In this document: piece by piece, positions 37,425 through 55,027 of the stretch | Position numbering within the stretch: the stretch's first letter is position 1 | How the letters are laid out: every line of letters begins with the position of its first letter | Assembly: GCA_965261685.1 (NCBI GenBank) | Contig: CBDHDI010000026.1 | Span: 423,777-487,776 of the forward strand | Direction: 5' to 3' | From: Dehalococcoidia bacterium | GTDB taxonomy: Bacteria > Chloroflexota > Dehalococcoidia > UBA2979 | DNA length: 64,000 nt | The notes under the pieces: model-generated | The model's database searches: none | What the model saw: only the letters and a program-made list of their open reading frames with translations | What the model was told of the DNA's origin: nothing | Made by a program: the position numbers and the translations under genes

Positions 37425-40400
37425 ATGCTCCGCATCGCCCGGATAGTCGCTGTGCGCTCGATGATTGGCGCGCTGGGCGCGCTGGTCGCGCTGCTGGCCA
37501 GCCTCGATTCTGCGCATGCCGACCCGGCCTGCGCGCTTCCGCCCATTGGCCTCGACAGCGCCCTGGACGAGGGTGGTGCGGGCATCATCCTGACCTGGCA
37601 AGCGTCGCCCTGCGACCCGGACGGGTACGCCATCTATCGCCGCGACATGAACGACGCCGGGGCCAGGATGCTGCGCCACGCCACCGTGCCGGGCGACGCG
37701 CTCTCTTATCTCGACGCCGATGTCTCGGCTGGCGTCACCTACCGATACCGGGTCAGGTCCAACGACAGCGGTCGCCGCTCAGACTTCACCGATATCACGA
37801 CGCCATCGGCGTCCCGCGCATCGCAAGCCTCGACCGACGCCGAGCTGAGCGCGCTCAGCCTCAGCCCCGGGACGCTGGATCCCGCCTTCGACCGGATGAC
37901 GGACTCCTACACGGCGTCGGTCGAGCATCTGCAATCTCCGATCACACTGATCGCCACGGCGTCCGATCCGGTCAACGCCAGGGTCGAGTTCCTGGACGGC
38001 GACGACATGCCGCTGGCGGACGCCGACGGCAACACGGCAGGCCACCAGGTGGACCTCGCCGTGGGCGAGAACACGAGCAAGATCAAGGTGACCGCTGAGG
38101 ATGACTTGACCACTCGGACGTACACGCTGGTCGTGACCCGCGCCGGGCCGAACACCGACCTCAGCGATCTGCGGGTGAACGGCGTCAGCGTGCCCGGATT
38201 CGACTCGGACGTTAAGTACAAGTCGTCCGGCGTGCAGCGCGGCGTGGCCGCATCGGTGGCGCAAGCGACGATCGAGGGCGTCACCGACGATCCCGACGCC
38301 GCGGTTGCCTACCTGGGCACGGACGCCGACGAGATGACCGACGGCCACCAGGTGAACCTCAGCGAGGGCCGGAACGAGATATCGATCGTCGTCACCGCGG
38401 CCGACGGCGTCACGACGAGGACCTACCTGCTGAGCGTCAACCGGGGCTCGGACGCGCCCTTCGGTTGGAGGGCGCAGGACGACTTCGACACCCTGGTGGC
38501 GGCCGGGAACAACTCACCCGTGGGCCTCTGGTCGGACGGCACGACCATGTGGGTGGCGGAAGACCACGATCCGCTCGAACGGCTCTTCGCGTACGCGCGC
38601 GACACCAGGTTGCGCGATCCCGACAAGGACTTCGAAACCCTGCGGGCGGCTTCGAACACGAACGTCCGGGGCATCTGGTCGGACGGCATGACCATGTGGG
38701 TGGCGGACAGCTATGACGAAAAGCTCTACGGCTACGCGATGGATACGCGGCAGCGGGCCTCGGGCAAGGACTTCAACTCGCTGGAGGCGGCCGACAACAC
38801 CGATCCCGGGGACATTTGGTCTGACGGCGAGACCATCTGGGTGGTGGAGAAGAGTGACCCAAAGCTCTATGCCTATCGGCTCGCCACCGGTGAGCGGGAC
38901 TCGGCCAAGGACTTCAACACCCTGGCCGGCGACCATTCCGCTCGCAATGCTATCTGGTCCGACCGCACGACCATCTGGATCGGAGACAGCGCGAGAGAAG
39001 AACTCTACGCCTACGACCTGGCTACCGGGAAGCGCGATCGCGGCAGCGACTTCAACACCCTGAAAGCAGTCCGCAACACACACATCCGCTACATCTGGTC
39101 CGACGGTACGATCATGTGGGTATCAGACCGGAGAGATGGCAAGCTCTACGCCTACAACATGCCCGGCAACGCGGACCTGAGCGGGCTCAGTCTCAGCGCC
39201 GGGACATTGGAGCCGGCGTTCCACCGGGTGACGACGTCATATGCGGCGTCGGCGCCGAACGCCGTGTCCACGATCACGGTGACCGCGCCGGCGTCCGATG
39301 CCGGCCAGGCCACGGTTGAGTTCCTCGACGCCTCGGACGAGACGCTGGCGGACGCCGATCTCAACACTGCGGGACACCAAGTCGCCCTCGCCCCGGGTGA
39401 GAACACGATCAAGATCAAGGTCACCGCCGAAGACGGCGCCACGACCCGGACCTACACCCTCGTGGTCACCCGACAGGGGCCGCTGGAGGTGAGCTTCGGA
39501 TCGTCCTCGTTCCGCGTCGCAGAGGGTGGCTCTGTCACGGTGACGGCCGTTCTGGAGCGGGCGACCGAGCGTGACGTGGCGGTCCCGCTGATCGTCACAG
39601 CCGGGAGCGGCGTCAGCGACGATGACTACTCAGGCGTGCCGGAGAACCTGATAATCGCTCGCGGTTCGTTTTTCGCGACCTTCAGTTTCAAGGCCGAGGG
39701 CGACGTCGTCGTCGAGGACGACGAGGTCGTCACCGTGTCGTTCGACACGTTGCCCGATGGCCTGACCGCGGGTACTCCGACAACGACCACGGTCACAATC
39801 GAAGACGACGACGAACCGAACTGGTTGGTCTCGGTGGTTCCGGCGTCGATCGCCGAGGCGAACGAGTCAGCGGCAACGGTGTCGGTGAGCAGCGGCGGCG
39901 TGACGTTCACCGCTGACAGGACGATCAGCCTCAATTTCGTGGGCACGGCGACCGAAGCGGTGGACTACGAGGTCGCGGCCAAGACGTTGACCCTCGCGGT
40001 CGGAGAGCACACGGTCGCGACCACGGTCAGCGCGCTGGACGACAGCGTCTCGGACCTCGACGAGCAGATCCTGGTCAGGGCGACGCTGGACGGCGCCAGG
40101 ATCGGCGCTCAGCAGACGATCACCATCGCCGACGACGACGAGGCGTCCGACGGGATCGTGCTCGAAGTTGCGCCCAACCGGGTCAACGAGGACGCGGGCG
40201 TTACGACCCTGACGGTGACCGGCACGCTCAACGGTTCGGCGCTGACGACCGACACGCTGGTGTCGCTCATGCTCGCTGCCGGCACCGCGACCGTGACCAC
40301 CGACTACACGGTCAGCTCGAACACGGCCACGCTCACGATCCCGGCGGCGGCGACATCGGGGACGGCCAGCTTCCGGCTGACCCCGGTCGACGACGCGATC

Positions 40401-43400
40401 GACGACGACGACGAGACCGTGACGATCGCGGCGTCGACGATGTCGGCCCTGACGCTGTCGACGTCGTCGCTGACCGTCACGATCGCCGACGACGACGAAC
40501 CGAATACCGCGCCCGTCTTCCAGCCTCCGTCCCCGACGCGCAGCGTGGACGAGAACAGCGCAGCAGGCGTCGCCGTGGGCGCGCCGGTGACCGCGATCGA
40601 CGCCGACAACGACCGGCTGAGCTACTCGCTGGGCGGCGCCGGCGCGACCGCGTTCCGGATCGATGAGGCCAGCGGACAGCTGCGCACGGTCTCGGGGGTT
40701 GACTACGACCATGAGGCGGCCGACCGCTACGCCGTGACGGTCACCGCCGACGACCTGCGCGGGGGCGTCGGCAGGGCGTCGGTGACGATTCACGTCAGCG
40801 ACCTGGACGAGCCGCCGCCCGCCCCCGCCGAGCCAACCGTGACGCCCACGGTCGGCGAAACGGACGGCCTGGAGGTGTTCTGGATTGCCCCCAGCGCGAG
40901 CGGCCGCCCCACGCTGAGCGGCTACGAGCTGCGCTATCGAGCGGGCGGCGGCTCGTGGGTCGGCTGGAACCACGCGGGCACGGGCATCGTCGCCACGCTC
41001 GACGGGCTCAAGGCTGGTACCCGTTACGAAGTCCAGGTGCGCGCCGGCAACCATGAGGGCTGGAGCAGCTGGTCGCAATTGGGCGCGGGCTCGACCAACA
41101 CTGCGGACGACATCTGTTCGGCTGACGGCCCGACCCCGACCAGGATCACGGTCAGTTCGGTGCCGATTGTGATCGCCTCGACGACGGACGACTACTTCGT
41201 CCTCTACGTCACCCACGAGTTGGACGGCGCCGAAATCTGGACGCCGGTCTCGGTCACCCGGGGCAACGCCGGCAGCACCACGCTCGCCGAGCAGGTCAGC
41301 CCGCTGCCCGCCTCGCGCTACCGGGTCGAGCGCTACTCCGTCTCCGACCCGGCCGACATCGACGGCGACTGTATCGACGACCTCGCCGAACTCGACGCCC
41401 TGGGCCGCTTGAACCCGCTCAACCCCGCACCCCAGATCGCGATCACGGACGGCGCGACGGCGATCCCCGACCGCTCGACCTTTGAGACGCTCGCCTTCTC
41501 CGAGCAGACCGCCGGGCATGAGTATGTCAAGTTCGCGCTGCTCGACATGGACACCGACGAGCCGCTGCTCTACTGGATCAACTCCAAGACCCACCGGCGC
41601 CACCCGATCGCCTTCTTCCTCGAGACGATCGGCCACGCGGGGCCGCACCTGCCTTGGTCGATCCCCGGCGAGGTCGTCTACAACCCCAACCTAACGGCGA
41701 CCGACGGCACGCGCGGCGTCTACTACTTCTGGCTGCTGCACTACGACGCCCGCTTCACGCCCGCCTTCCTGGAGCGCGTCTACGCGCTGCTCAGCTCGGC
41801 CATGCCGCTGCTCGACGACGACCTGCCGATGTACATCCCCAACCAGCGGCTCGGCAGCTATCGGGCCGATCTGGATACGCTCAGGGACTCGCGGATCCCA
41901 CTGCTCTTCAACGAGGACGTCTTCGGCAACGCCGACTTCCTCGCCCTCAACCACGGCGTCGGCTACGGCCGCCTGCGGGTGATGGCGCCGGGCGAGCGTC
42001 CCAACCCGCGCAACGTCGTGATCTACGAGACGCTGCCCAACGAGTTGCCGCGCGTCGCCGGGATCATCACCGGCGTGCCCCAGACTCCGCTCTCGCACGT
42101 CAATCTGCGCGCCGTCCAGGACGGCGTCCCCAACGCCTACATCAAGGAGCCGCTGGAGGACGACGAGATCGACGACCTGGTTGATCGCTTCGTCCGCTAC
42201 GAGGTGACAGCCGAGGGCTACGAACTGCGCGCCGCCGCCAAGGCCGAGGTCGACGCTCACTTCGCCCGCTCCCGACCCGCCCATGTGCAGACCCCGGAAC
42301 GCGACCTCACGGTCACGGCGATCAGCGCGCTCAGCGAGATCGGCTTCGACGACTGGCGCGCGCTCGGGGTCAAGGCCGCCAACGTCGCCGAACTGGGCAA
42401 GCTCGGCTTCCCCGAGGGCGCCGTGCCCGACGGCTTCGCCATCCCTTTCTACTTCTACGACGAGTTCATGCAGCACACCGCCCTGGGCGAGGAGACCGTC
42501 TTCGGCAAGGGCAAGGGCGCCGACGAGGACAAATTCACGCTGCCGGCCGAGACCAAGCTGATCGATGCCGTCCAGGCGATACTGGCCCACCCCAAGTTCC
42601 AGACGGACTTCGAGATCCAGGACGAGATGCTGGATGACCTCCGCGACGCGATCGAGGACGCCCAGAGCCCGCAGTGGATCATCGACGCCCTGACCGCCAT
42701 GCACGCGACGTATCCGCAGGGGCAATCGCTGCGCTACCGGTCGAGCACGAACAACGAGGATCTGCCGGGCTTCAGCGGCGCCGGGCTGTACGACTCCAAC
42801 ACCCAGAAGCCCGACGAGACCGTCGAGGACGGGATCGACAAGTCGCTCAAGCAGGTCTTCGCCAGCCTGTGGAACTTCCGGGCGTTCACCGAGCGGGAGT
42901 TCCATCGCATCGACCACCTGGCCACCGCGATGGGCATCCTCGTCCATCCCAACTACTCCGACGAGCGGGCCAACGGCGTGGCCGTGAGCTTCGACCCGAT
43001 TCGCGGCTACAGCAACTACTACTACCTCAACACCCAGCTCGGCGAGGACCTGGTCACCAACCCCGAGGCCGACTCCGAACCAGAGGAAATCCTGCTGCAC
43101 CGCAGCGGCGACTTCTACGAAGTCCTGGCGACCTCCAACCAGATCGAACCGGGCGCGCTGTTGATGACCGACCTGCAGATGAAGCAGCTGGCCGAGCACC
43201 TGACCGTGATCCACGACCACTTCGCCCGGCTCTATCCGGCCCGACCCTACGCAATCGAGATCGAGTTCAAGATCACCGAGGCAGACATCCTCGCGATCAA
43301 GCAGGCCCGGCCCTGGGTCTACGGCGCTGCGACCTCCTCCTCGCCGCTCACTGGCCCTGCGACCGTCGGCTACGAGGAGAATCGGGCCTCCCGTGTGGCC

Positions 43401-46265
43401 GCCTACTCGGCGTCCTCCGAGGCGGACCTGGAGTTGGTGGGTTGGAGCCTGTCGGGCCCCGACGCCGGCTCCTTCCGCATCGACGAGCCCGGCGGCGTAT
43501 TGCGCTTCGACCTCCCCATCGTGGCCCCCAATCTCTTCTCTCCTCAGCCGGACTACGAAGCCCCGACCGACACGGGGAGCGACGGCGCCTACGAGGTGAC
43601 CGTCGAGGTAAGCGACGGCGTCACCACCCACTCGCTGGACGTGGCGGTGACGATCACCGATCAGGACGAAGCGGGGACGCTGACCCTGTCCCCGACCCGG
43701 CCCCGGCAGGGCGAACCCGTGACGGCGACGCTGGCCGACCCTGACGGCGTGACCGGGACGATCACCTACGAGTGGGAGCGCTCGGCGGGCCGCAACGCGT
43801 GGGTCACCATCGCCGGCGCGACCTCTGCCAGCTACTCGCCGGTCGCCGCTGACGCCGCGCACTACCTCCGAGTGACGGCGTCCTATACCGACGGTCACGG
43901 CTCCGGCCAGACCGCCCGGACGGTGACACCCAACGTGGTGCTGGCGCGAACACTGAGCCGGCTTGAGGTAGTCACGACCTCCTCGAGACAGCTGTATCCC
44001 GCGTTCGACCCCGGGACGCTCCACTATGCCGTGGGTTGCGTCGCAGCGGACACGCTGCGCCTGACGCTATCGACGACGGACGCCGATACCCGGCTGGCGG
44101 TCGACGGCGTCCAGTACGCCAATCAGAACGCAATCGTCGAGTTGACGGGCAAAGGCGGCGAGAGCGACATCCTGATCACGCTCAGCGGTGGTAGCGACGG
44201 CGCAAGCACCACCTATACGCTGCACTGCCTCGCCGAGGATTTTCCGACGATCACCGTGACAAGACTGGACGGCGCGTCGGAGTCGTTGATGACCATCTCA
44301 TATGGGCAGTACCTCGCGATCATCGATCACAACGGGGTACCTCGGTTCCGGGGGCAGGGGCGAGGACATTTCAGGGCGTACCCGGACGGCGGGTATCCAT
44401 ATGCGGTATACGTCCACGCGGACTCTGCATATACCGTGTACGACGAAACTTTCAACGTAGTCCAGAGTGGGATCACAACGGTCAATCTCCACGACACGAA
44501 CTCGCACGACTTTTTCATCAAACCGAACGGTGATTACGTGCTGATAGCGTATGAGCCTGCGGTGCGCGATCTGAGCTTCATATCTGAACAATTTGGTCTG
44601 ACGAACGAGGACGGCGAACCATACGGTACCGCCGAGGACGTGAAAGATTCAGTGATCCAGGTGGTAACGCCTGCCGGGCAAGAAGTGTTCCTGTGGAGCT
44701 CCTGGGATCACATGGCGATCGAAGACTGCACGCAACATCGCTTCCCCGGTGATTACGCGCACATCAACTCAGTACAGGCCGCGGATGGGGACATCATCGC
44801 TTCATTCCGGGGCTGCTCGAAGGTGTTGAGGATCGATGGGACCAGCGGTGATGTGATCTGGCGGCTGGGCAGGAGCAATCTGAGTACAGAGGAGTGGGAG
44901 AGCCGCAGCATCGGTCCGCCGCCGCTGAAGATCGTTGGCGACCCCTATGGGGAGTTCTGTGGGCAGCATGCGGCGCGGTTGCTGGACAATGGCCACCTCA
45001 TCCTCTTCGACAACGGCGTGCAGTGCCTTGAAGATCCACGAACAGGCGGGACGGAACGAGTCGGCGGTCAGTTCAGCAGAGTCGTTGAGTACGCCATCGA
45101 TCTGAAAAACGGCGAAGCGATCTTCCAGCGTCACGCCTTCTTGCACGGCAACATGAACCACCTGTCCTACGCGATGGGTCAAGCCGATGCGCTGGACAAC
45201 GGCAACTGGTTGATCACCTGGGGCCGGGGCGCCAGAGTCCGCGATCCTCAGGATCCCGATCCTCCTGACGTGTCGGCAACGCAGGTGAATCCGGCGACCG
45301 GAGTCGAAGAACTCACGGTCGTCGCCAGGATCGACGGCGATGTCCAGACAGAAGGCCGGATGTACCCTGTGGCCCCGGTGGCGCTGGCCACCGAACCCAT
45401 CGCCCTGACGGCCGAGTTCCCCGCGAGCACGTACACATCAATCTTCCATCTCGGCGTCACGGACTCGCCGCAGGTCGTCGTGGCCTTCAGCCGCCCGATC
45501 GTCGACTTCGACGACACCACCCCATCGCTCACCGTCCGCGGCGCGGAAGTCGCGAGCGTCAGCCCGCACGTCGTCGCCGGCGAGCCGGCTTACGCCTACC
45601 TGTTCACGCTGACGCCGGACGGCGACGGCGCGATCACGCTCACGCTGCTTGCCAACCGGAGTTGCTCCTCGGGAGGCATCTGTACCGCGGACGGCGCAAT
45701 GCTGTCGGAAGTCCCCGGCACGTACACGATCGAAGCGCCGGTGCGCGTCTCCTTCGAGCAGACGAGCTTCACGGCATCGGAAGGCGCGTCAGCCTCGATC
45801 GTGGTGAGCCTGAGCGCGCCGAGCGGGCCCTTCGGGCTCACCATCCCGATCGTGGTCACAGGCGGCACGGCGTCCGCGGACGAGTACAGCGCCCCGGAAC
45901 AGGTGGTCTTCAGCAGCGGTAGCGACCGGCAGGCCGTTTCCATTCCGCTTGGCGACGACGCGCTGATCGAAGGCGACGAGACCATTGCGCTCGCTTTCGG
46001 CGACTTGCCCCCAGGCGTCACGCCGGGAACCAACGCCACGACGACCGTGACGATCACGGATGCAGACAGCGCGGCGTTCGAGTTCGCGATCTCTGACGAC
46101 GAGGTGGGGGAAGGCGCCACGGTGGAGCTGACCGTCACCCTCGATGGCGACGCCACCTTCGCGACCGCGCAGACGATTAACCTCACCTTCCCGGGCGGCG
46201 CAGCCACCGCGGGAGTCGATTTCACCGTCGCAGATTCCCGGGGACAAACGCTGACGGCCCCTTAT
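37425..46265 (+). CDS. Giant secreted modular surface protein, segment A (2,947 codons): signal peptide, FN3, cadherin-like beta-sandwich, propeller repeats, Calx-beta, cadherin, FN3, PPDK_N-like ATP-grasp, Ig-like, ASST-like propeller, Calx-beta; interrupted by IS1380 copy 4
   Basis: Signal peptide MLRIARIVAVRSMIGALGALVALLASLDSAHA. Domains were assigned by motif recognition (see findings). Confidence 0.8.
38520..39170 (+). repeat. ~13-14 tandem ~47-aa 'GxWSDGxTMWVxD...KLYAYxxxTGxRxxxxDFxTL' repeats (predicted beta-propeller blades), coding
   Basis: GLWSDGTTMWVAEDHDPLERLFAYARDTRLRDPDKDFETL / GIWSDGMTMWVADSYDEKLYGYAMDTRQRASGKDFNSL, and so on. A second array lies at 53480..54170. Confidence 0.7.
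41480..43320 (+). other. Embedded PPDK_N / PEP-synthase-like ATP-grasp (PEP/pyruvate-binding) domain within the giant protein
   Basis: LGVKAANVAELGKLGFPEGAVPDGFAIPFYFYDEFM (cf. GGKxAxLxE...VPxGF), RYRSSTNNEDLPGFSGAGLYDS (cf. RSSATAEDLPxASFAGQ), LKQVFASLWNFRAF, and MGILVHPNYSDERANGVAVSFDP (cf. MAVxVQxMVxxxxSGVxFTxDP). Confidence 0.6.
44230..45300 (+). other. Arylsulfotransferase (ASST)-like beta-propeller domain preceded by cadherin-like beta-sandwich
   Basis: LHDTNSHDFFIKPNGDYVLIAYE...HINSVQAADGDIIASFRGCSKVLRIDGTSGDVIWRLG...HAARLLDNGHLILFDNG. Recalled similarity to the ASST family (PF05935). Confidence 0.45.
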
Positions 46266-47923
46266 CTCGAATCCACCGATCGAAGCTTGAAGGGGCGGGC
46301 TGCCGGGCTGCCGGAGCGTTCGGCGGGCGTGCCGGCGTTCGCCGGGCGGTGCCGGAGCGAGGAGCCGTCGCTCAGCGTCGCTCAGCGCGGCTCGGGGGCG
46401 CTGAGGGCGCCGGCGCGAGGGTGCGCGAGGCGTGCGCGGGCATGCTGGCGCGAGCCTCGGACCCGTGTTGGCGCTGTGAGCGAGCGTCAGGCCGGGAGCG
46501 GTAACGCCCGTAACCGCGCCAGGGCGGCTGCCCACTGGCCAGCCCAGGGCCAGCGCTTCGCGAGGTGCAGGGTCCAGCGCCGTGCAGAATGGGTGAGCCG
46601 TCCGGCGAGAGCGAAGTAGCGCCGCCTGAGCGTCCTGGTCGTCACGATCCCCTCGCCGAGCCCGAGCCGCGCCGTCCAGCGGGCGAGGTTGTGCGCGATC
46701 ACCTGCACCGCGAGCCACGCCCCGTTCGCGCCGAAGCGGCCCGAGGGGAGATGGTTCAGCCCGACGCCGTACTTGAGGTCACGGATCGTGTTCTCGATCT
46801 CGGCGTGACGGCGATGGTCGGCCTCCAGCTCCAGCAGCTCCCCGGCGCGATCGGTGATGAAGGCGTGGTAACTATAGTTCGCAAAGAGCGCGAGCTGTGA
46901 GCCGGGCGTCGGCTTGACGCGCCGCACGATGAGCCGCACCGCGGTGGCATCCTCCTTGTGCTGGAACGGCGTGTAGGTCGTCTCGGCGACATCCGCGCCG
47001 CCCGGCAGCCAGTACGGGATCGGCGTCCAGTCCTCTTCCGGGATCGCCTCGATCAGCGTGCGTACGTTCGGCTGCTGGCGAATGGTGATGGAGAAGCGGA
47101 CATCCTGCTTGCGGCAGACGGCGACGACGGCGTGGTTGTAGAAGCCGCTGTCGGCGCGCACCGTGAGCTGCCCGCTCGCCCCGGCGTCGCGCACCCGCGC
47201 CACCGTCTCACGCAGGAAGTGGGCGGCGCCGCGGGCGGTGTTGGCGCGGCCCTCGCGCAGCCGCGCCATCAGCACGTCACCCGTCCCGGCCGCAACGGCG
47301 AGCAGCGGGTGATAGCCGCGCACGCCCGTGTAGCCGTGGTGCCGGGCGCCCTCCTTCGCCAGGCCGTAGGTCTCGCAGATCGTCGAATCGAGGTCGATCG
47401 TGAACGGCGCCGCGCCCGGGCCCGCTCCGGCCGCCCAGCTGCGGGCGAGCAACTCGCGGCTGAGGCGGTCGAGCTGGCGGACGTGGCCCCAGCTGAAGCT
47501 GCGCAGGAAGACACCGAGCGTGGACGGCGCCTTGACGGTGCAACCGAGCACGCTCGCCGTCCCGCCGGCGCGCAACGCAGCGGCGTCGTCGATGCACTCG
47601 CCGCCCGCGAGCGCCGAGGCGACCAGGGTCAGCAGCTTGTCGCCGGCGTTCGCCCGGCCCGGCGCGTCACCGAGGTCGAGGTAGCTGTCGGCGAGCTCTT
47701 GCAAACCGAGATGCTGGGCGAGCGTGGCCGGGAGGAGCAGCCCCGCATCGGCCACCAGGCGGTCGTCGTCGAAGGCGATGTCTATCCGGTCGGGGTCGCT
47801 CGTTGGTAGCATCGAATGGGTGCTCCCTGTGGCTGTGACGTGATTCGGTCAAAAACCATTGTCCCAGCTACAGCGGAGCACCCAACCGCAACCGCTCATG
47901 CGCTCTTCTTCGGTGGATCCCGG
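46266..47923 (-). mobile_element. IS1380-family IS, copy 4 (1658 bp), TSD CTTAT, inserted in giant gene
   Basis: gccccTTAT|ctcgaatcc ... ggatcccgg|CTTATgcg. Transposase 46487..47812 (-). Confidence 0.85.
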
Positions 47924-47928
47924 CTTAT

Positions 47929-50900
47929 GCGCTCACCCTGCCCGCGGGCTCCAGCTCGGTGGCGGCCACGATCAGCATCGTTGACGACGCCGAGGAAGAA
48001 GGCAACGAGACCATCGTGGTCAGGGCCCGGCATGGAGCCGATGCCGTTGGTGACCTCCAGGTCATCAAGATCCTGGCCAACGACGAACCCATCATCGGCA
48101 ACACCCTGCCAGTGTTCAGGGATGGTCAGTTTGCGGCACGATCCATTGCCGAGAACACCGGGCCGAACATGGACATCGGCACCCGGCTCGAGGCAAGGGA
48201 TGTCGATCCGGGGGACACGCTGACGTACTCGCTGGGCGGCACGGACGGTGGCTTCTTCACCGTCGTCCGGACCAGCGGTCAACTCCAGACCCGGTCCGGC
48301 ATCACCTACGACCACGAGGCGCGGTCGAGCTACCGCGTGACCGTGAGCGTCTCGGACGGCGCGGCCACTGCATCGATCGACGTGACGATCGCGGTGACCG
48401 ATGTGGACGAACCGCCCGATGCGCCTGTCGTGCGGGTGGGCAGCGCGTCGCCCGTCAGCCTCAATGTGATGTGGCTGGCGCCCGCCACCCCCGACCGCCC
48501 CGCAGTCAGCAACTACGACGTGCGCTACAAGCTGGACAGCGAAACGACGTTCATCGACGGCCCTCAGGATGTGAGCGGGACGAGCACGACGATTGCTGGT
48601 CTGCTACCAGCCTCCAGCTACGACGTGCAGGTGCGAGCGACGAACGCTGAGGGCGACGGAGCCTGGTCGGCGTCGCAACCGGGCGAGACGGCCGTGCTGC
48701 CGGCGGTCACGCTGATCCTGAGTGCATCTTCGATACCCGAGGACCGCGGGATGAGCACGGTGACCGCGACCGTGTCACCGGCCTCGCCTGCACCCTTCTC
48801 CGTGGAGATCTGGGCAGCGGCCGTCCCGCCGATCCCGGGCCAATTCGAGACCAGCCTGAATAACATCCTCAGCTTCGCGGCGAACGCGACGCAGAGCACC
48901 GGCCAAGTGGTGATCACGGGCCTCGTCGCGACGGTGGTGAACGTAACCGGCACCGTGTCGCCGGCCGGCGTCCTGGTGAAACCGCCGGCCCGCGTCCAGC
49001 TGCGAATCACAGATGTGGACCCCGCAGTGACAGTGCGCTTCGGGAGTGCCACCTACAACGTGCCCGAGGGGGGCATCCGACGCATCAGCGTGCTCCTGGA
49101 CGAGGACCCGGAGCGCACAGTGGTCATCCCCATCACGAAGACCAACCAGGGCGGAGCGCGCAGCGGCGACTACTCCGTCGACCCTGACCCTACCAACGTG
49201 ACGTTCAACGCCGGCGGAGACCTGACGCAGACCTTCACCTTCACCGCCACCGCTGACACGGACGACGACGATGGCGAGAGCGTGTTGCTGAGCTTCGGCA
49301 CTCCCTTGCCCACGCGTGTGTCCACCCTCGCGCCCATCCAGAGCACGGTCAGCATCATCGACGACGACGATCCGGAGGTAACCGTTAAGTTCGGCGCATC
49401 CTCGATCAACGTGGGTGAGGGCGACAGCGCCACCATCACCGTGACCATCAGCGCCGACCCGGAGCGCACCGTGGTCATCCCGATCACGAAGACCGGGGAG
49501 CACGGCGCCACCGCGCAAGGCGAAACGGGCGCCGACTACTCGGGCGTCCCGAACAGCGTGATCTTCACCGCCAGCGGGTCGCAGACCTTCACCCTCACGG
49601 CGACGCAGGACCGCATTGACGACGACAACGAGGTGGTCAAGCTGGGCTTTGACACCGACAAGCTGCCGCCGGGCGTTACTGCCGAGAGTCCCACCACGCA
49701 GACGATCAACATCGGCGACGACGACAAGCGCGGCGTGACGGTCACGCCGGACGAGCTGGGCGTCAACGAGGACATGTCAGGCACCTACACGGTGGTGCTG
49801 GACACGCAGCCCACGGCGAACGTGACGGTGACGCCCAGGACGACGAGCAGCGAAGTGACGCTCTCCGGCGACCTCATGTTCACGCCGACCGACTGGGACA
49901 CTGCCCAGATGGTCACCGTCACGGCGGGGAACGACGCCGACACGGTGGCTGAGACGCTGACTGTCACGCACACGACGCGCGGCGGCGACTACGACATGCT
50001 GGCGACCGCCAGTGTCGCGGTGACGTTGGTGGACGACGACATTGCCGGCGTCGCGATCAACCCTTCGAATCTGGAGATTGACGAGGGATCGGAAAAAACG
50101 TTCACCGTCAAGCTGATCACCGAGCCCGGTAACGTCGTGACTGTCACGATGAGCTCCCGCGACGCGGCCGTGGCGACCGTCAGCGACGACTCGCTGACCT
50201 TCACGACCGGCGACTGGAGCACGGAGCAGGAGGTGACCGTCGCGGCTGCGCAGGACGACGGCGCGGCGAACAACGACACGATGATCACCTTTGGCGTGAG
50301 CGGCTACGGAAGCGTTACGGAGGCTGCACCCGTCACGGTCACCGTGGAGGACGACGACGAGCGCGCCGTGACGATCAGCGTGAGCGCGCTCACGGTGGAG
50401 GAGGAAGCGGCCACCGCCGACCCGCCGACCAACACCTACACGGTGGTGCTGGACACGCAGCCGGAGCAAGGGGAAGGCAACGTGACCGTCGCCATCACCT
50501 CCGACAACGACGACATCAGGACTAACGGCGGCAGCGCCACGTCGGCGAGCCCGTACAACCTGACCTTCACGTCCACCAACTGGGACCAACCGCAGACGGT
50601 GGCGGTCACGGCGATCAACGACCTCGACGGCTGGAACGAGGAAGCGACGCTCACCCACGCCGTGAGCGGCGCGGACTACGGCGCCGTGAACGCCGGTGCC
50701 GTCGGTGTCACGGTGACGGACAACGACCTGCTCGGCCTGCGCGTCAGCCCCGCCGAGTACACCACCGAACGCGTGGACGTGACTGAGGGCACGACGTATA
50801 GCTACACGTTGGCGCTCCTGACGGTCCCGCTGGGCGACGTCACCGTCGACATCACCTCCAACAACCCGGACGTGACCGTGGACCCGACGAAGTTGACGAT

Positions 50901-51645
50901 CCTCGCCGCCCAGTGGAACGCCCCGCACACGGTCAAGATCACCGTGGCGGCCGACGCCGACGGTGAGGACGAGCCGGCGACGCTGTCGCACACCCTGAGC
51001 GGCTACGGAACGTACACCACCGGCCCCGATTTCCTGGTGCAAGTGCTGGACCGGAACGAGCCCGGCGTGTTCATCGAGCCGACGACGCTGGCGATCACCG
51101 ACGGCTTTACCGACGCGTACTCAGTCTGGCTGCGCACGGAGCCCAGCGGCACCGCAACGGTTCGGGTAGCGGGCCACGCGGGCACGGATGTGACGGTGAT
51201 GCCGGAGAGCCTCACCTTCAGTTCCTCGGACTGGAACGTGCCGCAGGCCGTCACGGTCACGGCTGCGGAGGATGAGGACGCGGACAACGACACGGTGACG
51301 CTGACGCACACCGTGAGCGGCTACGGCACGGTCACCACCACCGATGCTGTCACGGTGACCATCGTGGACCGCGACGAAGAGGGAATCACGGTCACGGACG
51401 TGACGCCCCCGCTGGAGGACCCCAACGAGGGCGATACCCCAGCCACGGGCACGTACACGATCGTGCTGGACACGCAGCCCAGCGGCGAGGTGATGGTCGC
51501 CATCACCTCCAACAACCCGGACGTGACGGTGATGCCGGAGAGCTCCATCTTCACGACCTCGGACTGGAACCAGTCCCAGACGGTCACCGTCACGGCCGCG
51601 GGTGACGCGGACGCAACGGACGACACGGCGACCCTGACCCATAAG
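47929..51645 (+). CDS. Giant surface protein, segment B (1,239 codons): Calx-beta continuation, cadherin, FN3, Calx-beta x3, six ~105-aa tandem repeats; interrupted by IS1380 copy 5
   Basis: Frame-compatible with segment A once the 1658-bp IS plus 5-bp TSD are removed; the join reads ...TLTAPY|ALTLPAGSSSVAATISIVDDAEEEGNETIVV (Calx-beta-like). Confidence 0.8.
49727..51640 (+). repeat. Six tandem ~105-110-aa coding repeats (GVTVTPxxLxVxEGxSxTYTVVLDTQPxxxVTVxxxS...DTxTLTHTVSG...VTVTxDDD)
   Basis: Periodicity visible in the translated sequence; repeats start near 49741, 50050, 50370, 50735, 51066 and 51381. Confidence 0.6.
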
Positions 51646-53303
51646 CCGGGATCCACCGAAGAAGAGCGCATGAGCGGTTGCGGTTGGGTGCTCCGCTGTA
51701 GCTGGGACAATGGTTTTTGACCGAATCACGTCACAGCCACAGGGAGCACCCATTCGATGCTACCAACGAGCGACCCCGACCGGATAGACATCGCCTTCGA
51801 CGACGACCGCCTGGTGGCCGATGCGGGGCTGCTCCTCCCGGCCACGCTCGCCCAGCATCTCGGTTTGCAAGAGCTCGCCGACAGCTACCTCGACCTCGGT
51901 GACGCGCCGGGCCGGGCGAACGCCGGCGACAAGCTGCTGACCCTGGTCGCCTCGGCGCTCGCGGGCGGCGAGTGCATCGACGACGCCGCTGCGTTGCGCG
52001 CCGGCGGGACGGCGAGCGTGCTCGGTTGCACCGTCAAGGCGCCGTCCACGCTCGGTGTCTTCCTGCGCAGCTTCAGCTGGGGCCACGTCCGCCAGCTCGA
52101 CCGCCTCAGCCGCGAGTTGCTCGCCCGCAGCTGGGCGGCCGGAGCGGGCCCGGGCGCGGCGCCGTTCACGATCGACCTCGATTCGACGATCTGCGAGACC
52201 TACGGCCTGGCGAAGGAGGGCGCCCGGCACCACGGCTACACGGGCGTGCGCGGCTATCACCCGCTGCTCGCCGTTGCGGCCGGGACGGGTGACGTGCTGA
52301 TGGCGCGGCTGCGCGAGGGCCGCGCCAACACCGCCCGCGGCGCCGCCCACTTCCTGCGTGAGACGGTGGCGCGGGTGCGCGACGCCGGGGCGAGCGGGCA
52401 GCTCACGGTGCGCGCCGACAGCGGCTTCTACAACCACGCCGTCGTCGCCGTCTGCCGCAAGCAGGATGTCCGCTTCTCCATCACCATTCGCCAGCAGCCG
52501 AACGTACGCACGCTGATCGAGGCGATCCCGGAAGAGGACTGGACGCCGATCCCGTACTGGCTGCCGGGCGGCGCGGATGTCGCCGAGACGACCTACACGC
52601 CGTTCCAGCACAAGGAGGATGCCACCGCGGTGCGGCTCATCGTGCGGCGCGTCAAGCCGACGCCCGGCTCACAGCTCGCGCTCTTTGCGAACTATAGTTA
52701 CCACGCCTTCATCACCGATCGCGCCGGGGAGCTGCTGGAGCTGGAGGCCGACCATCGCCGTCACGCCGAGATCGAGAACACGATCCGTGACCTCAAGTAC
52801 GGCGTCGGGCTGAACCATCTCCCCTCGGGCCGCTTCGGCGCGAACGGGGCGTGGCTCGCGGTGCAGGTGATCGCGCACAACCTCGCCCGCTGGACGGCGC
52901 GGCTCGGGCTCGGCGAGGGGATCGTGACGACCAGGACGCTCAGGCGGCGCTACTTCGCTCTCGCCGGACGGCTCACCCATTCTGCACGGCGCTGGACCCT
53001 GCACCTCGCGAAGCGCTGGCCCTGGGCTGGCCAGTGGGCAGCCGCCCTGGCGCGGTTACGGGCGTTACCGCTCCCGGCCTGACGCTCGCTCACAGCGCCA
53101 ACACGGGTCCGAGGCTCGCGCCAGCATGCCCGCGCACGCCTCGCGCACCCTCGCGCCGGCGCCCTCAGCGCCCCCGAGCCGCGCTGAGCGACGCTGAGCG
53201 ACGGCTCCTCGCTCCGGCACCGCCCGGCGAACGCCGGCACGCCCGCCGAACGCTCCGGCAGCCCGGCAGCCCGCCCCTTCAAGCTTCGATCGGTGGATTC
53301 GAG
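51646..53303 (+). mobile_element. IS1380-family IS, copy 5 (1658 bp), TSD ATAAG, inserted in giant gene
   Basis: ccATAAG|ccgggatccacc ... gattcgag|ATAAGgcc. Transposase 51757..53082 (+). Confidence 0.85.
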
Positions 53304-53308
53304 ATAAG

Positions 53309-55027
53309 GCCAGCGGCAGCGATTACAGCGCCACCGCCGCCCTCATGGTCACCGTCACCGACCTGGACGACCCGCCGACCACCAGCACTAGCACCGGCGG
53401 CGGTGGCGGTGGTCCCTCCGGCCCCGCGCCGAGCAAGGTCGAGTTCGAGTGGAACGTGACCCGCGACATCGAGCAGCTCGACAGCGGCCACGACTCCCCA
53501 ACGGGCGCCTGGTCGGACGGCACGCTGCTCTGGATCGCCGAGAACGGCGACGGGGCTGACGACGCCGTCTACGCCTACGACCTCGCCACGGGCGAGCGCC
53601 TCGAGGAGCGTGAGTTCGAACTCCACGAAACCAACCGCGCGCCGCGCGGCCTGTGGTCCAACGGCAAGACCGCCTGGGTCGCCGATAGCGGCCAGAACCG
53701 CCTCTTCGCCTACGACCTCGAGAGCGGCGAACGCGACGAAGAGCGCGAGGTCGAGCTCGACACGCGCAACCGCGACCCGCGCGGCATCTGGTCCGACAAG
53801 GAGACGATGTGGGTGCTCGACGGCGGCAAGAACGCGCTCTTCGCCTACGACCTCGCCACCGGCGAGCTGCTGGTCGAGTACACCCTGCACTCCACCAACG
53901 ACGACCCGCGGGGTCTCTGGTCCGACGGCGTCACCATCTGGGTCTCCGACCACGGCGCCAAGCGCATCTTCGCCTACCGGGTCGTGGCGCAGGACGCCGA
54001 GACCGCGACCGAGGACGAAGACGACGCGGCCGAGGAAGAGGCGCTCCTGCTCGATCGTGCCCGCGACGAGGAGTTCACCGAACTGAGCCGGGCCAGCAAC
54101 AACAGCCCGCGCGGCATCTGGTCCGACGGCGAGGTGATGTACGTCGCCGACGAGAGCGACGGCAGGGTCTACAGCTACAACCTGCCTGACGCCATCGACG
54201 CACGCCTCGCCTCGCTCACCCTCAGCGGCGTCGACATCGGGGAGTTCGATCCTGGCGCCATCGACTACCAGGGCGTCATCGCCGAGGGCGTGACCGAGAC
54301 GACGGTCGAGGCCGCAGCGATGCAGCGCCGCACGAACGTCGAGATCCACCCGCTCGACGCCAACGAGGCTGCCGACGGCCACCAGGTGGCGCTGGAAGGC
54401 CTGGACGCGATCACCGTCACCGTCACCTCGGCCGACGGCAGCCGCACCCGCGTCTACCGCGTTCGCCTCGGCGAGGAGGCGGCGAGCTGCCTGCGCGGCG
54501 ACATCGCCGAAGGCTTCAGCTTTGTGGTCCATGAGGGCGGCCCGGTCGAGGAACTGGTGGCCTGCGCGGAGAGCCGGGATGTGGTCGCGCTCTACGCGCT
54601 GCACGAGGGCGTCTACATCCCGTACATCCTTGGTGCGCCGGACTTCGTCAATGCGCGGTTCACGGAGCTGTACGCCGACGGCGTGCCCGCTCTCACACTG
54701 CTGATCGCCGGGAGCAACGGGCCTCCCAGTGAGGATCCGCTGGGCGATACCGGCATGCCACAGCCCTGGCCCGAGTGTCTGCGGGGTGAGATCGCGGAGG
54801 GGTTCAGCCCGGTGCTCTACGAGGGCGGCAGCGTCGACGACCTGGCGGCGTGCGCGCAGGGCCGAGGAGTCACAGCCGTGTATACCCTCGCGAGCGGGGA
54901 GTGGATCTCGTACATCCTCGGCGCACCTGAGTTCGCGAACCAGGCCTTCCGGGAATTGTTCGCCGAGGGGCTGGCCGCCGTCACGCCGCTGGTCGTCAGG
55001 AGCGAGGGACCTGCCGCAGGTAACTGA
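53309..55027 (+). CDS. Giant surface protein, segment C (572 codons): linker, second propeller-repeat array, cadherin-like beta-sandwich, 2.5 copies of novel Cys-containing C-terminal module
   Basis: The join reads ...ATLTHK|ASGSDYSATAALMVTVTDLDDPP. The C-terminal modules are CLRGDIAEGFSFVVHEGGPVEELVACAESRDVVALYALHEGVYIPYILGAPDFVNARFTELYADGVPALTLL, repeated. Confidence 0.8.
   Translation, partial: ASGSDYSATAALMVTVTDLDDPPTTSTSTGGGGGGPSGPAPSKVEFEWNVTRDIEQLDSGHDSPTGAWSDGTLLWIAENGDGADDAVYAYDLATGERLEEREFELHETNRAPRGLWSNGKTAWVADSGQNRLFAYDLESGERDEEREVELDTRNRDPRGIWSDKETMWVLDGGKNALFAYDLATGELLVEYTLHSTNDDPRGLWSDGVTIWVSDHGAKRIFAYRVVAQDAETATEDEDDAAEEEALLLDRARDEEFTELSRASNNSPRGIWSDGEVMYVADESDGRVYSYNLPDAIDARLASLTLSGVDIGEFDPGAIDYQGVIAEGVTETTVEAAAMQRRTNVEIHPLDANEAADGHQVALEGLDAITVTVTSADGSRTRVYRVRLGEEAASCLRGDIAEGFSFVVHEGGPVEELVACAESRDVVALYALHEGVYIPYILGAPDFVNARFTELYADGVPALTLLIAGSNGPPSEDPLGDTGMPQPWPECLRGEIAEGFSPVLYEGGSVDDLAACAQGRGVTAVYTLASGEWISYILGAPEFANQAFRELFAEGLAAVTPLVVRSEGPAAGN

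Follow-up and report, generated by a model that had tools for sequence, protein, structure and literature searches.

A putative secreted, histidine-dependent dikinase-type module within a giant adhesin-like protein of a probable sponge symbiont

The window analyzed here (64,000 nucleotides of one contig from a Dehalococcoidia bacterium that is probably a sponge symbiont) contains a giant gene that has been split twice by copies of the same IS element (Table 1). The listed ORF that opens it (37425-46619, forward strand, 3,064 amino acids) ends where it does because the reading frame enters the first of these copies, whose ends carry a CTTAT duplication. When the 3 segments are joined, the reconstructed gene encodes 4,758 amino acids, with both interruptions lying downstream of the module described below. 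Because of these 2 downstream IS elements, a full-length functional product may not be made from this copy of the gene. An exact look-up of the window protein returned no existing record. Mobile elements are numerous here, with at least 4 copies of one IS, 2 copies of another, and a serine recombinase.

The giant protein has the makeup of a secreted or surface adhesin-like protein: a leader with basic, hydrophobic, and AHA-type parts, read by eye with the help of a simple hydrophobicity rule, is followed by cadherin, fn3, and Calx-beta arrays recognized by Pfam. Besides the cadherin and fn3 domains just upstream of the module, Calx-beta, cadherin-like, and arylsulfotransferase (ASST) domains lie elsewhere in the protein, and segment C holds propeller-like WSDG repeats, a cadherin-like domain, and 2 C-terminal Cys-containing units of about 80 amino acids. 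A signal peptide together with arrays of cadherin, cadherin-like, fn3, and Calx-beta domains is also what characterizes giant surface proteins of sponge symbionts, organisms in which such eukaryotic-like domains are enriched (PMC11706023). These giant proteins have been described as adhesion or ELP proteins, and the papers found do not mention an embedded dikinase module.

Table 1. Features of the giant gene and its IS copies (window positions; aa, amino acids).
Feature	Position	Strand	Basis or remarks
Signal-peptide-like N-terminus, MLRIARIVAVRSMIGALGALVALLASLDSAHA before DP	37425..37520	+	Translation read by eye
Segment A of giant gene, aa 1-2947	37425..46265	+	Continuous ORF; IS junction 46260-46265
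Cadherin (aa 1040-1124) and fn3 (aa 1133-1218), adjoining module upstream	40542..41078	+	Pfam
Module start: Cys1231, small beta-sandwich, acidic Ca-binding-type loop	41115..41423	+	Conservation, predicted strands
Domain X, family-specific alpha/beta domain, aa 1334-1499	41424..41921	+	Model, conservation
Phosphohistidine swivel-type domain, aa 1504-1605	41934..42239	+	
Linker helix and loop between His and ATP-grasp domains, aa 1606-1646	42240..42362	+	Module model, helix 357-367
ATP-grasp nucleotide-binding domain, aa 1647-1964	42363..43316	+	PF01326 PPDK_N
ASST domain, aa 2360-2606	44502..45242	+	Pfam PF05935 (E 2.2e-18), also PF14269
IS copy 1	46260..47929	-	DDE_Tnp_1_4 transposase, 441 aa; splits gene after aa 2947
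Segment B of giant gene, aa 2948-4186	47929..51645	+	Cadherin, fn3, repeated beta-sandwich domains
IS copy 2	51640..53309	+	100% identical to copy 1, opposite orientation; splits gene after aa 4186
Segment C of giant gene, aa 4187-4758 and stop	53309..55027	+	

The earlier note on this DNA had placed an ATP-grasp domain of the PPDK_N type at 41480-43320 (amino acids 1352-1966 of the ORF), within a signal-peptide-bearing cadherin/fn3/Calx-beta protein, and both Pfam and an AlphaFold model bear this out. The C-terminal half of that interval is indeed the ATP-grasp domain, while 41480-42362 belongs to 2 further domains that had gone unrecognized. PF01326 matches the whole protein with an E value of 3e-21 and the excised region with 1.5e-22 (80.8 bits against a cut-off of 27). 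PF00391 and PF02896 have no match even at E ≤ 10, which for PF02896 agrees with the proposed absence of a PEP-utilizing TIM-barrel domain. The motifs that had been quoted are all present (GVKAANVAEL...VPDGFAIPF, RYRSSTNNEDLPGFSGAGLYDS, QVFASLWNFRAF, and NGVAVSFDP), including the replacement of GGK by GVK. Matches to the NCBIfam models for PEP synthase, rifamycin phosphotransferase, and pyruvate phosphate dikinase (PPDK) are confined to the N-terminal ATP-binding parts of these models, with 57-65 bits for PEP synthase and PPDK (missing the full-length cut-offs of 598-740 about tenfold) and 41.8 bits for the rifampin phosphotransferase model NF041857, whose cut-off is 999. A search of PDB sequences returned PEP synthases (8a8e, E 1.3e-8). 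In fold, the AlphaFold model corresponds to the ATP-binding domains of rifampin phosphotransferase (RPH; 5hv6, E 1.6e-12; the best structural match), PEP synthase (2ols), and PPDK (1kbl). The nucleotide/Mg residues K1650, R1772, E1945, E1947, Q1960, and R1962 are conserved across the family, and the Lys, the Arg of RSS, and the E-x-E and Q-A-R-P residues align with those of E. coli PpsA.

A phosphohistidine swivel domain had been thought to be missing, and this view is not supported: upstream of the ATP-grasp domain lies a swivel-type domain with an invariant His at the N-terminal end of a helix, the same placement as in swivel-domain enzymes. The predicted phosphoryl-carrier residue is His1558 (codon 42096-42098), within RVAGIITGVPQTPLSHVNLRAVQDGVPNAYI; a swivel domain with a catalytic His is a feature that the module shares with PEP synthase and PPDK. 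The best structural match to this part is again RPH. Sequence methods gave nothing significant for it, whether the module and 14 excised His regions were compared with Pfam (E ≤ 10), a profile of the His region was run through PDB sequences, or hhalign was used with the one swivel sequence of PpsA. With a profile built from 4 E. coli sequences (PpsA, PtsI, PtsP, and FryA), hhalign gave P 0.12, although His was paired with His, and a Smith-Waterman alignment to PpsA scored within the range of shuffles and aligned elsewhere.

Two more parts complete what appears to be a functional unit of about 735 amino acids (amino acids ~1231-1966), in which a beta-sandwich with a Ca-type loop is followed by an orphan domain X and then by the His and ATP-grasp domains. 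The beta-sandwich is recognizable by the pattern VPIV.STTDDYFVLYV...RYRVE.Y, and its acidic loop (DPADIDGDCIDDLAELD) includes Cys1316; weak EF-hand matches occur in 2 of 40 family members. A Cys no more than 25 amino acids upstream of the module is found in 91 of 108 homologues. Domain X is modeled with a pLDDT of about 80-90, is present throughout the family, and carries invariant polar residues, among them His1393 (codon 41601-41603). No relative of domain X was found in Pfam, among PDB sequences, or by Foldseek. Because of its position, we take domain X to be the candidate acceptor-binding domain, which is an assumption.

The order of these domains matches that of plant glucan, water dikinase (GWD) and differs from that of PEP synthase, PPDK, and RPH. 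As in GWD1 and phosphoglucan, water dikinase (PWD) of plants and algae (EC 2.7.9.4 and 2.7.9.5), a domain on the acceptor side, here the candidate domain X, comes before the phosphohistidine domain, and a linker helix leads on to the PPDK_N domain at the C-terminal end; in potato GWD1 the His domain spans amino acids 931-1050 (with H992) and the ATP domain 1069-1387, joined by a comparable linker helix (PMC13553574), while the module's own numbering puts them at 255-356 and 398-715. GWD fragments read PDVLSHVSVRARN where the family reads QTPLSHVNLRAVQ, at equal spacing from the preceding strand, and the 2 share the length and the LSHV-x-[LV]-RA core of the His motif. The sequence signal is faint: hhalign pairs 19 columns at the His motif with real GWD fragments (P 0.006, probability 6%), and the GWD-type phosphohistidine model PF22973 stays below threshold, with E values of 0.054 (2 of 14 members) and 0.16 (1 of 40). 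Both systems are flanked by noncatalytic binding modules, and GWD/PWD act on a polymer. Differences are equally clear: CBM45 and CBM20 had no match in the 3,064-amino acid protein or in 40 homologues, domain X (~165 amino acids) is far smaller than the 440-amino acid GWD central domain and has no sequence kinship to anything known, the GWD redox pair CFATC is missing, and GWD/PWD are plastidial, whereas the module is bacterial and secreted. By this analogy, the module appears to hold all that is needed for ATP-driven phosphate transfer as plants use it to phosphorylate starch.

Other members of the superfamily resemble the module in part. RPH from Listeria monocytogenes (PDB 5hv1, 5fbs), with 14-18% sequence identity, is also a three-domain dikinase that lacks a PEP-binding TIM barrel and phosphorylates a hydroxyl acceptor. 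RPH is cytoplasmic, however, and runs from ATP-grasp through the rifampin-binding domain to His; the structural match is limited to the ATP-grasp and swivel parts, with no similarity found to the rifampin-binding domain. PpsA and PPDK share a homologous ATP-grasp domain (by Pfam, NCBIfam, and PDB 8a8e and 2ols), the aligned catalytic Lys, Arg, Glu, Gln, and Arg, and the swivel-domain fold. Their order (ATP-grasp, His, TIM barrel) is reversed relative to the module (X, His, ATP-grasp), and their PEP/pyruvate TIM barrel (PF02896) is missing from it.

The module is found again in more than 1,700 protein clusters and in no fewer than 589 genomic loci, with 53-79% identity across at least 6 bacterial phyla (95% in the nearest relative) and with named sponge symbionts among its carriers. 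With domain X plus the His domain alone, 272 clusters (50% identity) reach E ≤ 1e-30. Homologues are on record merely as "hypothetical protein," and literature searches on sponges and water dikinases or PPDK-type enzymes, or with motif strings, found no paper describing the family; the architecture is previously uncharacterized, as the earlier note had supposed. That the family is limited to sponge symbionts is a lead, not a result. A signal-peptide-like leader often directly precedes the module. Of 119 close homologues, 91 have a module that begins no further than 130 amino acids from the N-terminus; 63 of these 91 have a hydrophobic leader and 75 the conserved Cys. Relative to the closest relative, dN/dS is 0.24 for the module and 0.54 for its upstream flank. 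All-against-all ORF clustering of 79 loci revealed no conserved neighbor gene, so operon-based functional inference was dropped.

We propose, with a probability of roughly 55%, that the region is part of a self-contained, secreted, His-dependent dikinase-type phosphotransferase module. A mechanism is suggested by analogy with GWD, PPDK, and RPH. Mg-ATP would be bound by the ATP-grasp domain and attacked by His1558 of the swivel domain, which would take the beta-phosphate with release of AMP and Pi; the His domain would then swing toward domain X, where the phosphate would be handed on to water or to an acceptor with a hydroxyl group. The adhesin-like domains would keep the enzyme on its substrate. 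The signal peptide, the cadherin/fn3/Calx-beta/propeller setting, and life in the sponge matrix suggest that the acceptor is most probably extracellular, for example, a glycan or protein of the host matrix or cell surface. ATP would then have to serve as an extracellular donor, and the scarcity of extracellular ATP counts against this proposal; we know of no extracellular ATP-grasp dikinase.

Could the module be an artifact or a relic? A misassembly, an insertion, or a chance joining of ORFs that fused a cytoplasmic PEP-synthase fragment with an adhesin gene might be suspected in a region full of mobile elements whose giant gene is itself IS-disrupted, but this is hardly credible. The frame is unbroken through the ATP-grasp region, GC content is uniform, the same module sits in the same type of protein throughout the clusters and loci counted above, and a PEP-utilizing domain never accompanies it. 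The module is not a frame-disrupted inserted fragment; the IS interruptions of the giant gene lie further downstream. A catalytically dead module, its fold retained for binding a nucleotide or other ligand, is improbable, although the extracellular site with its scarce ATP and the loss of GGK, which had led to the suggestion of a pseudo-enzyme, would fit it. GVK is the norm in the family and its Lys is invariant; the PpsA-aligned Arg, E-x-E, and Q-A-R-P residues and the carrier His are kept in nearly all members across 6 phyla. One small subclade is clearly degenerate, but here the losses go together: 3 homologues are without the carrier His, of which P0361 and P0379 have RSS changed to RPS and an altered LGED motif, with substitutions that differ between the two, P0379 additionally has K changed to Q and E-x-E to E-x-A, and P0383 is truncated. 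Such partial loss of ATP-grasp residues in His-less members is the pattern of genuine decay, and judged by its residues the module of the window is unlikely to be a pseudo-enzyme.

The 2 remaining alternatives accept the catalytic machinery and concern the acceptor. Water could take the phosphate in the same His/ATP-grasp chemistry (ATP to AMP and 2 Pi), making the module a consumer of extracellular ATP that clears a host-derived danger or purinergic signal or salvages phosphate, with domain X regulatory or structural. Such a route has a precedent in GWD1, which passes the beta-phosphate to glucan or, alternatively, from His to water (PMC13553574), and the intact catalytic residues, the secreted, host-associated setting, and the lack of a recognizable CBM- or lectin-like acceptor domain in the module are consistent with it. 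We nevertheless consider it rather unlikely, as a conserved, ever-present domain X with invariant polar residues is hard to explain without a bound acceptor, and simpler secreted nucleotidases exist. It is also unlikely that the module is an RPH-type phosphotransferase that modifies a small hydroxyl metabolite outside the cell, such as a natural product of the sponge or a competitor. RPH is the top structural match for both catalytic parts, and an ASST domain, which acts on phenolic compounds, is present in the same polypeptide; an ASST-containing ORF adjoins the module gene in 4 of 79 related loci. Yet the co-occurrence with ASST is limited to these few loci, the domain order is unlike that of RPH, whose substrate domain is unmatched, and the module is almost always accompanied by adhesin-type domains, pointing to a surface or a polymer as the target.

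Returning to the proposed secreted dikinase-type phosphotransferase, Pfam detects PPDK_N alone in the family and misses the His domain and domain X, leaving a gap in annotation. To our knowledge, the His-swivel dikinases (PEP synthase, PPDK, GWD, RPH, and phenylphosphate synthase) are all intracellular. If the proposal is true, a very large, strongly conserved, secreted family whose acceptor domain is an orphan would bring this chemistry outside the cell. It would be the first in the PEP-synthase/GWD superfamily known to act extracellularly and would have a new acceptor-binding domain, raising the questions of which target is phosphorylated and where the ATP originates. GWD-type polymer-phosphorylating enzymes are valuable in biotechnology, and a compact enzyme of this type from bacteria would be handier than the plant enzymes of 1,400 amino acids. 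More tentatively, sponge symbionts of at least 6 phyla might share, by horizontal transfer, secreted ATP-dependent dikinases that either phosphorylate components of the host's extracellular matrix or of its cell surface, or use up ATP outside the cell. The proposed activity would represent an unrecognized enzymatic mode of host-microbe interaction, and since the family looks like a marker common to unrelated sponge-symbiont lineages, it could give direct molecular access to the ways in which symbionts alter or perceive the host matrix.

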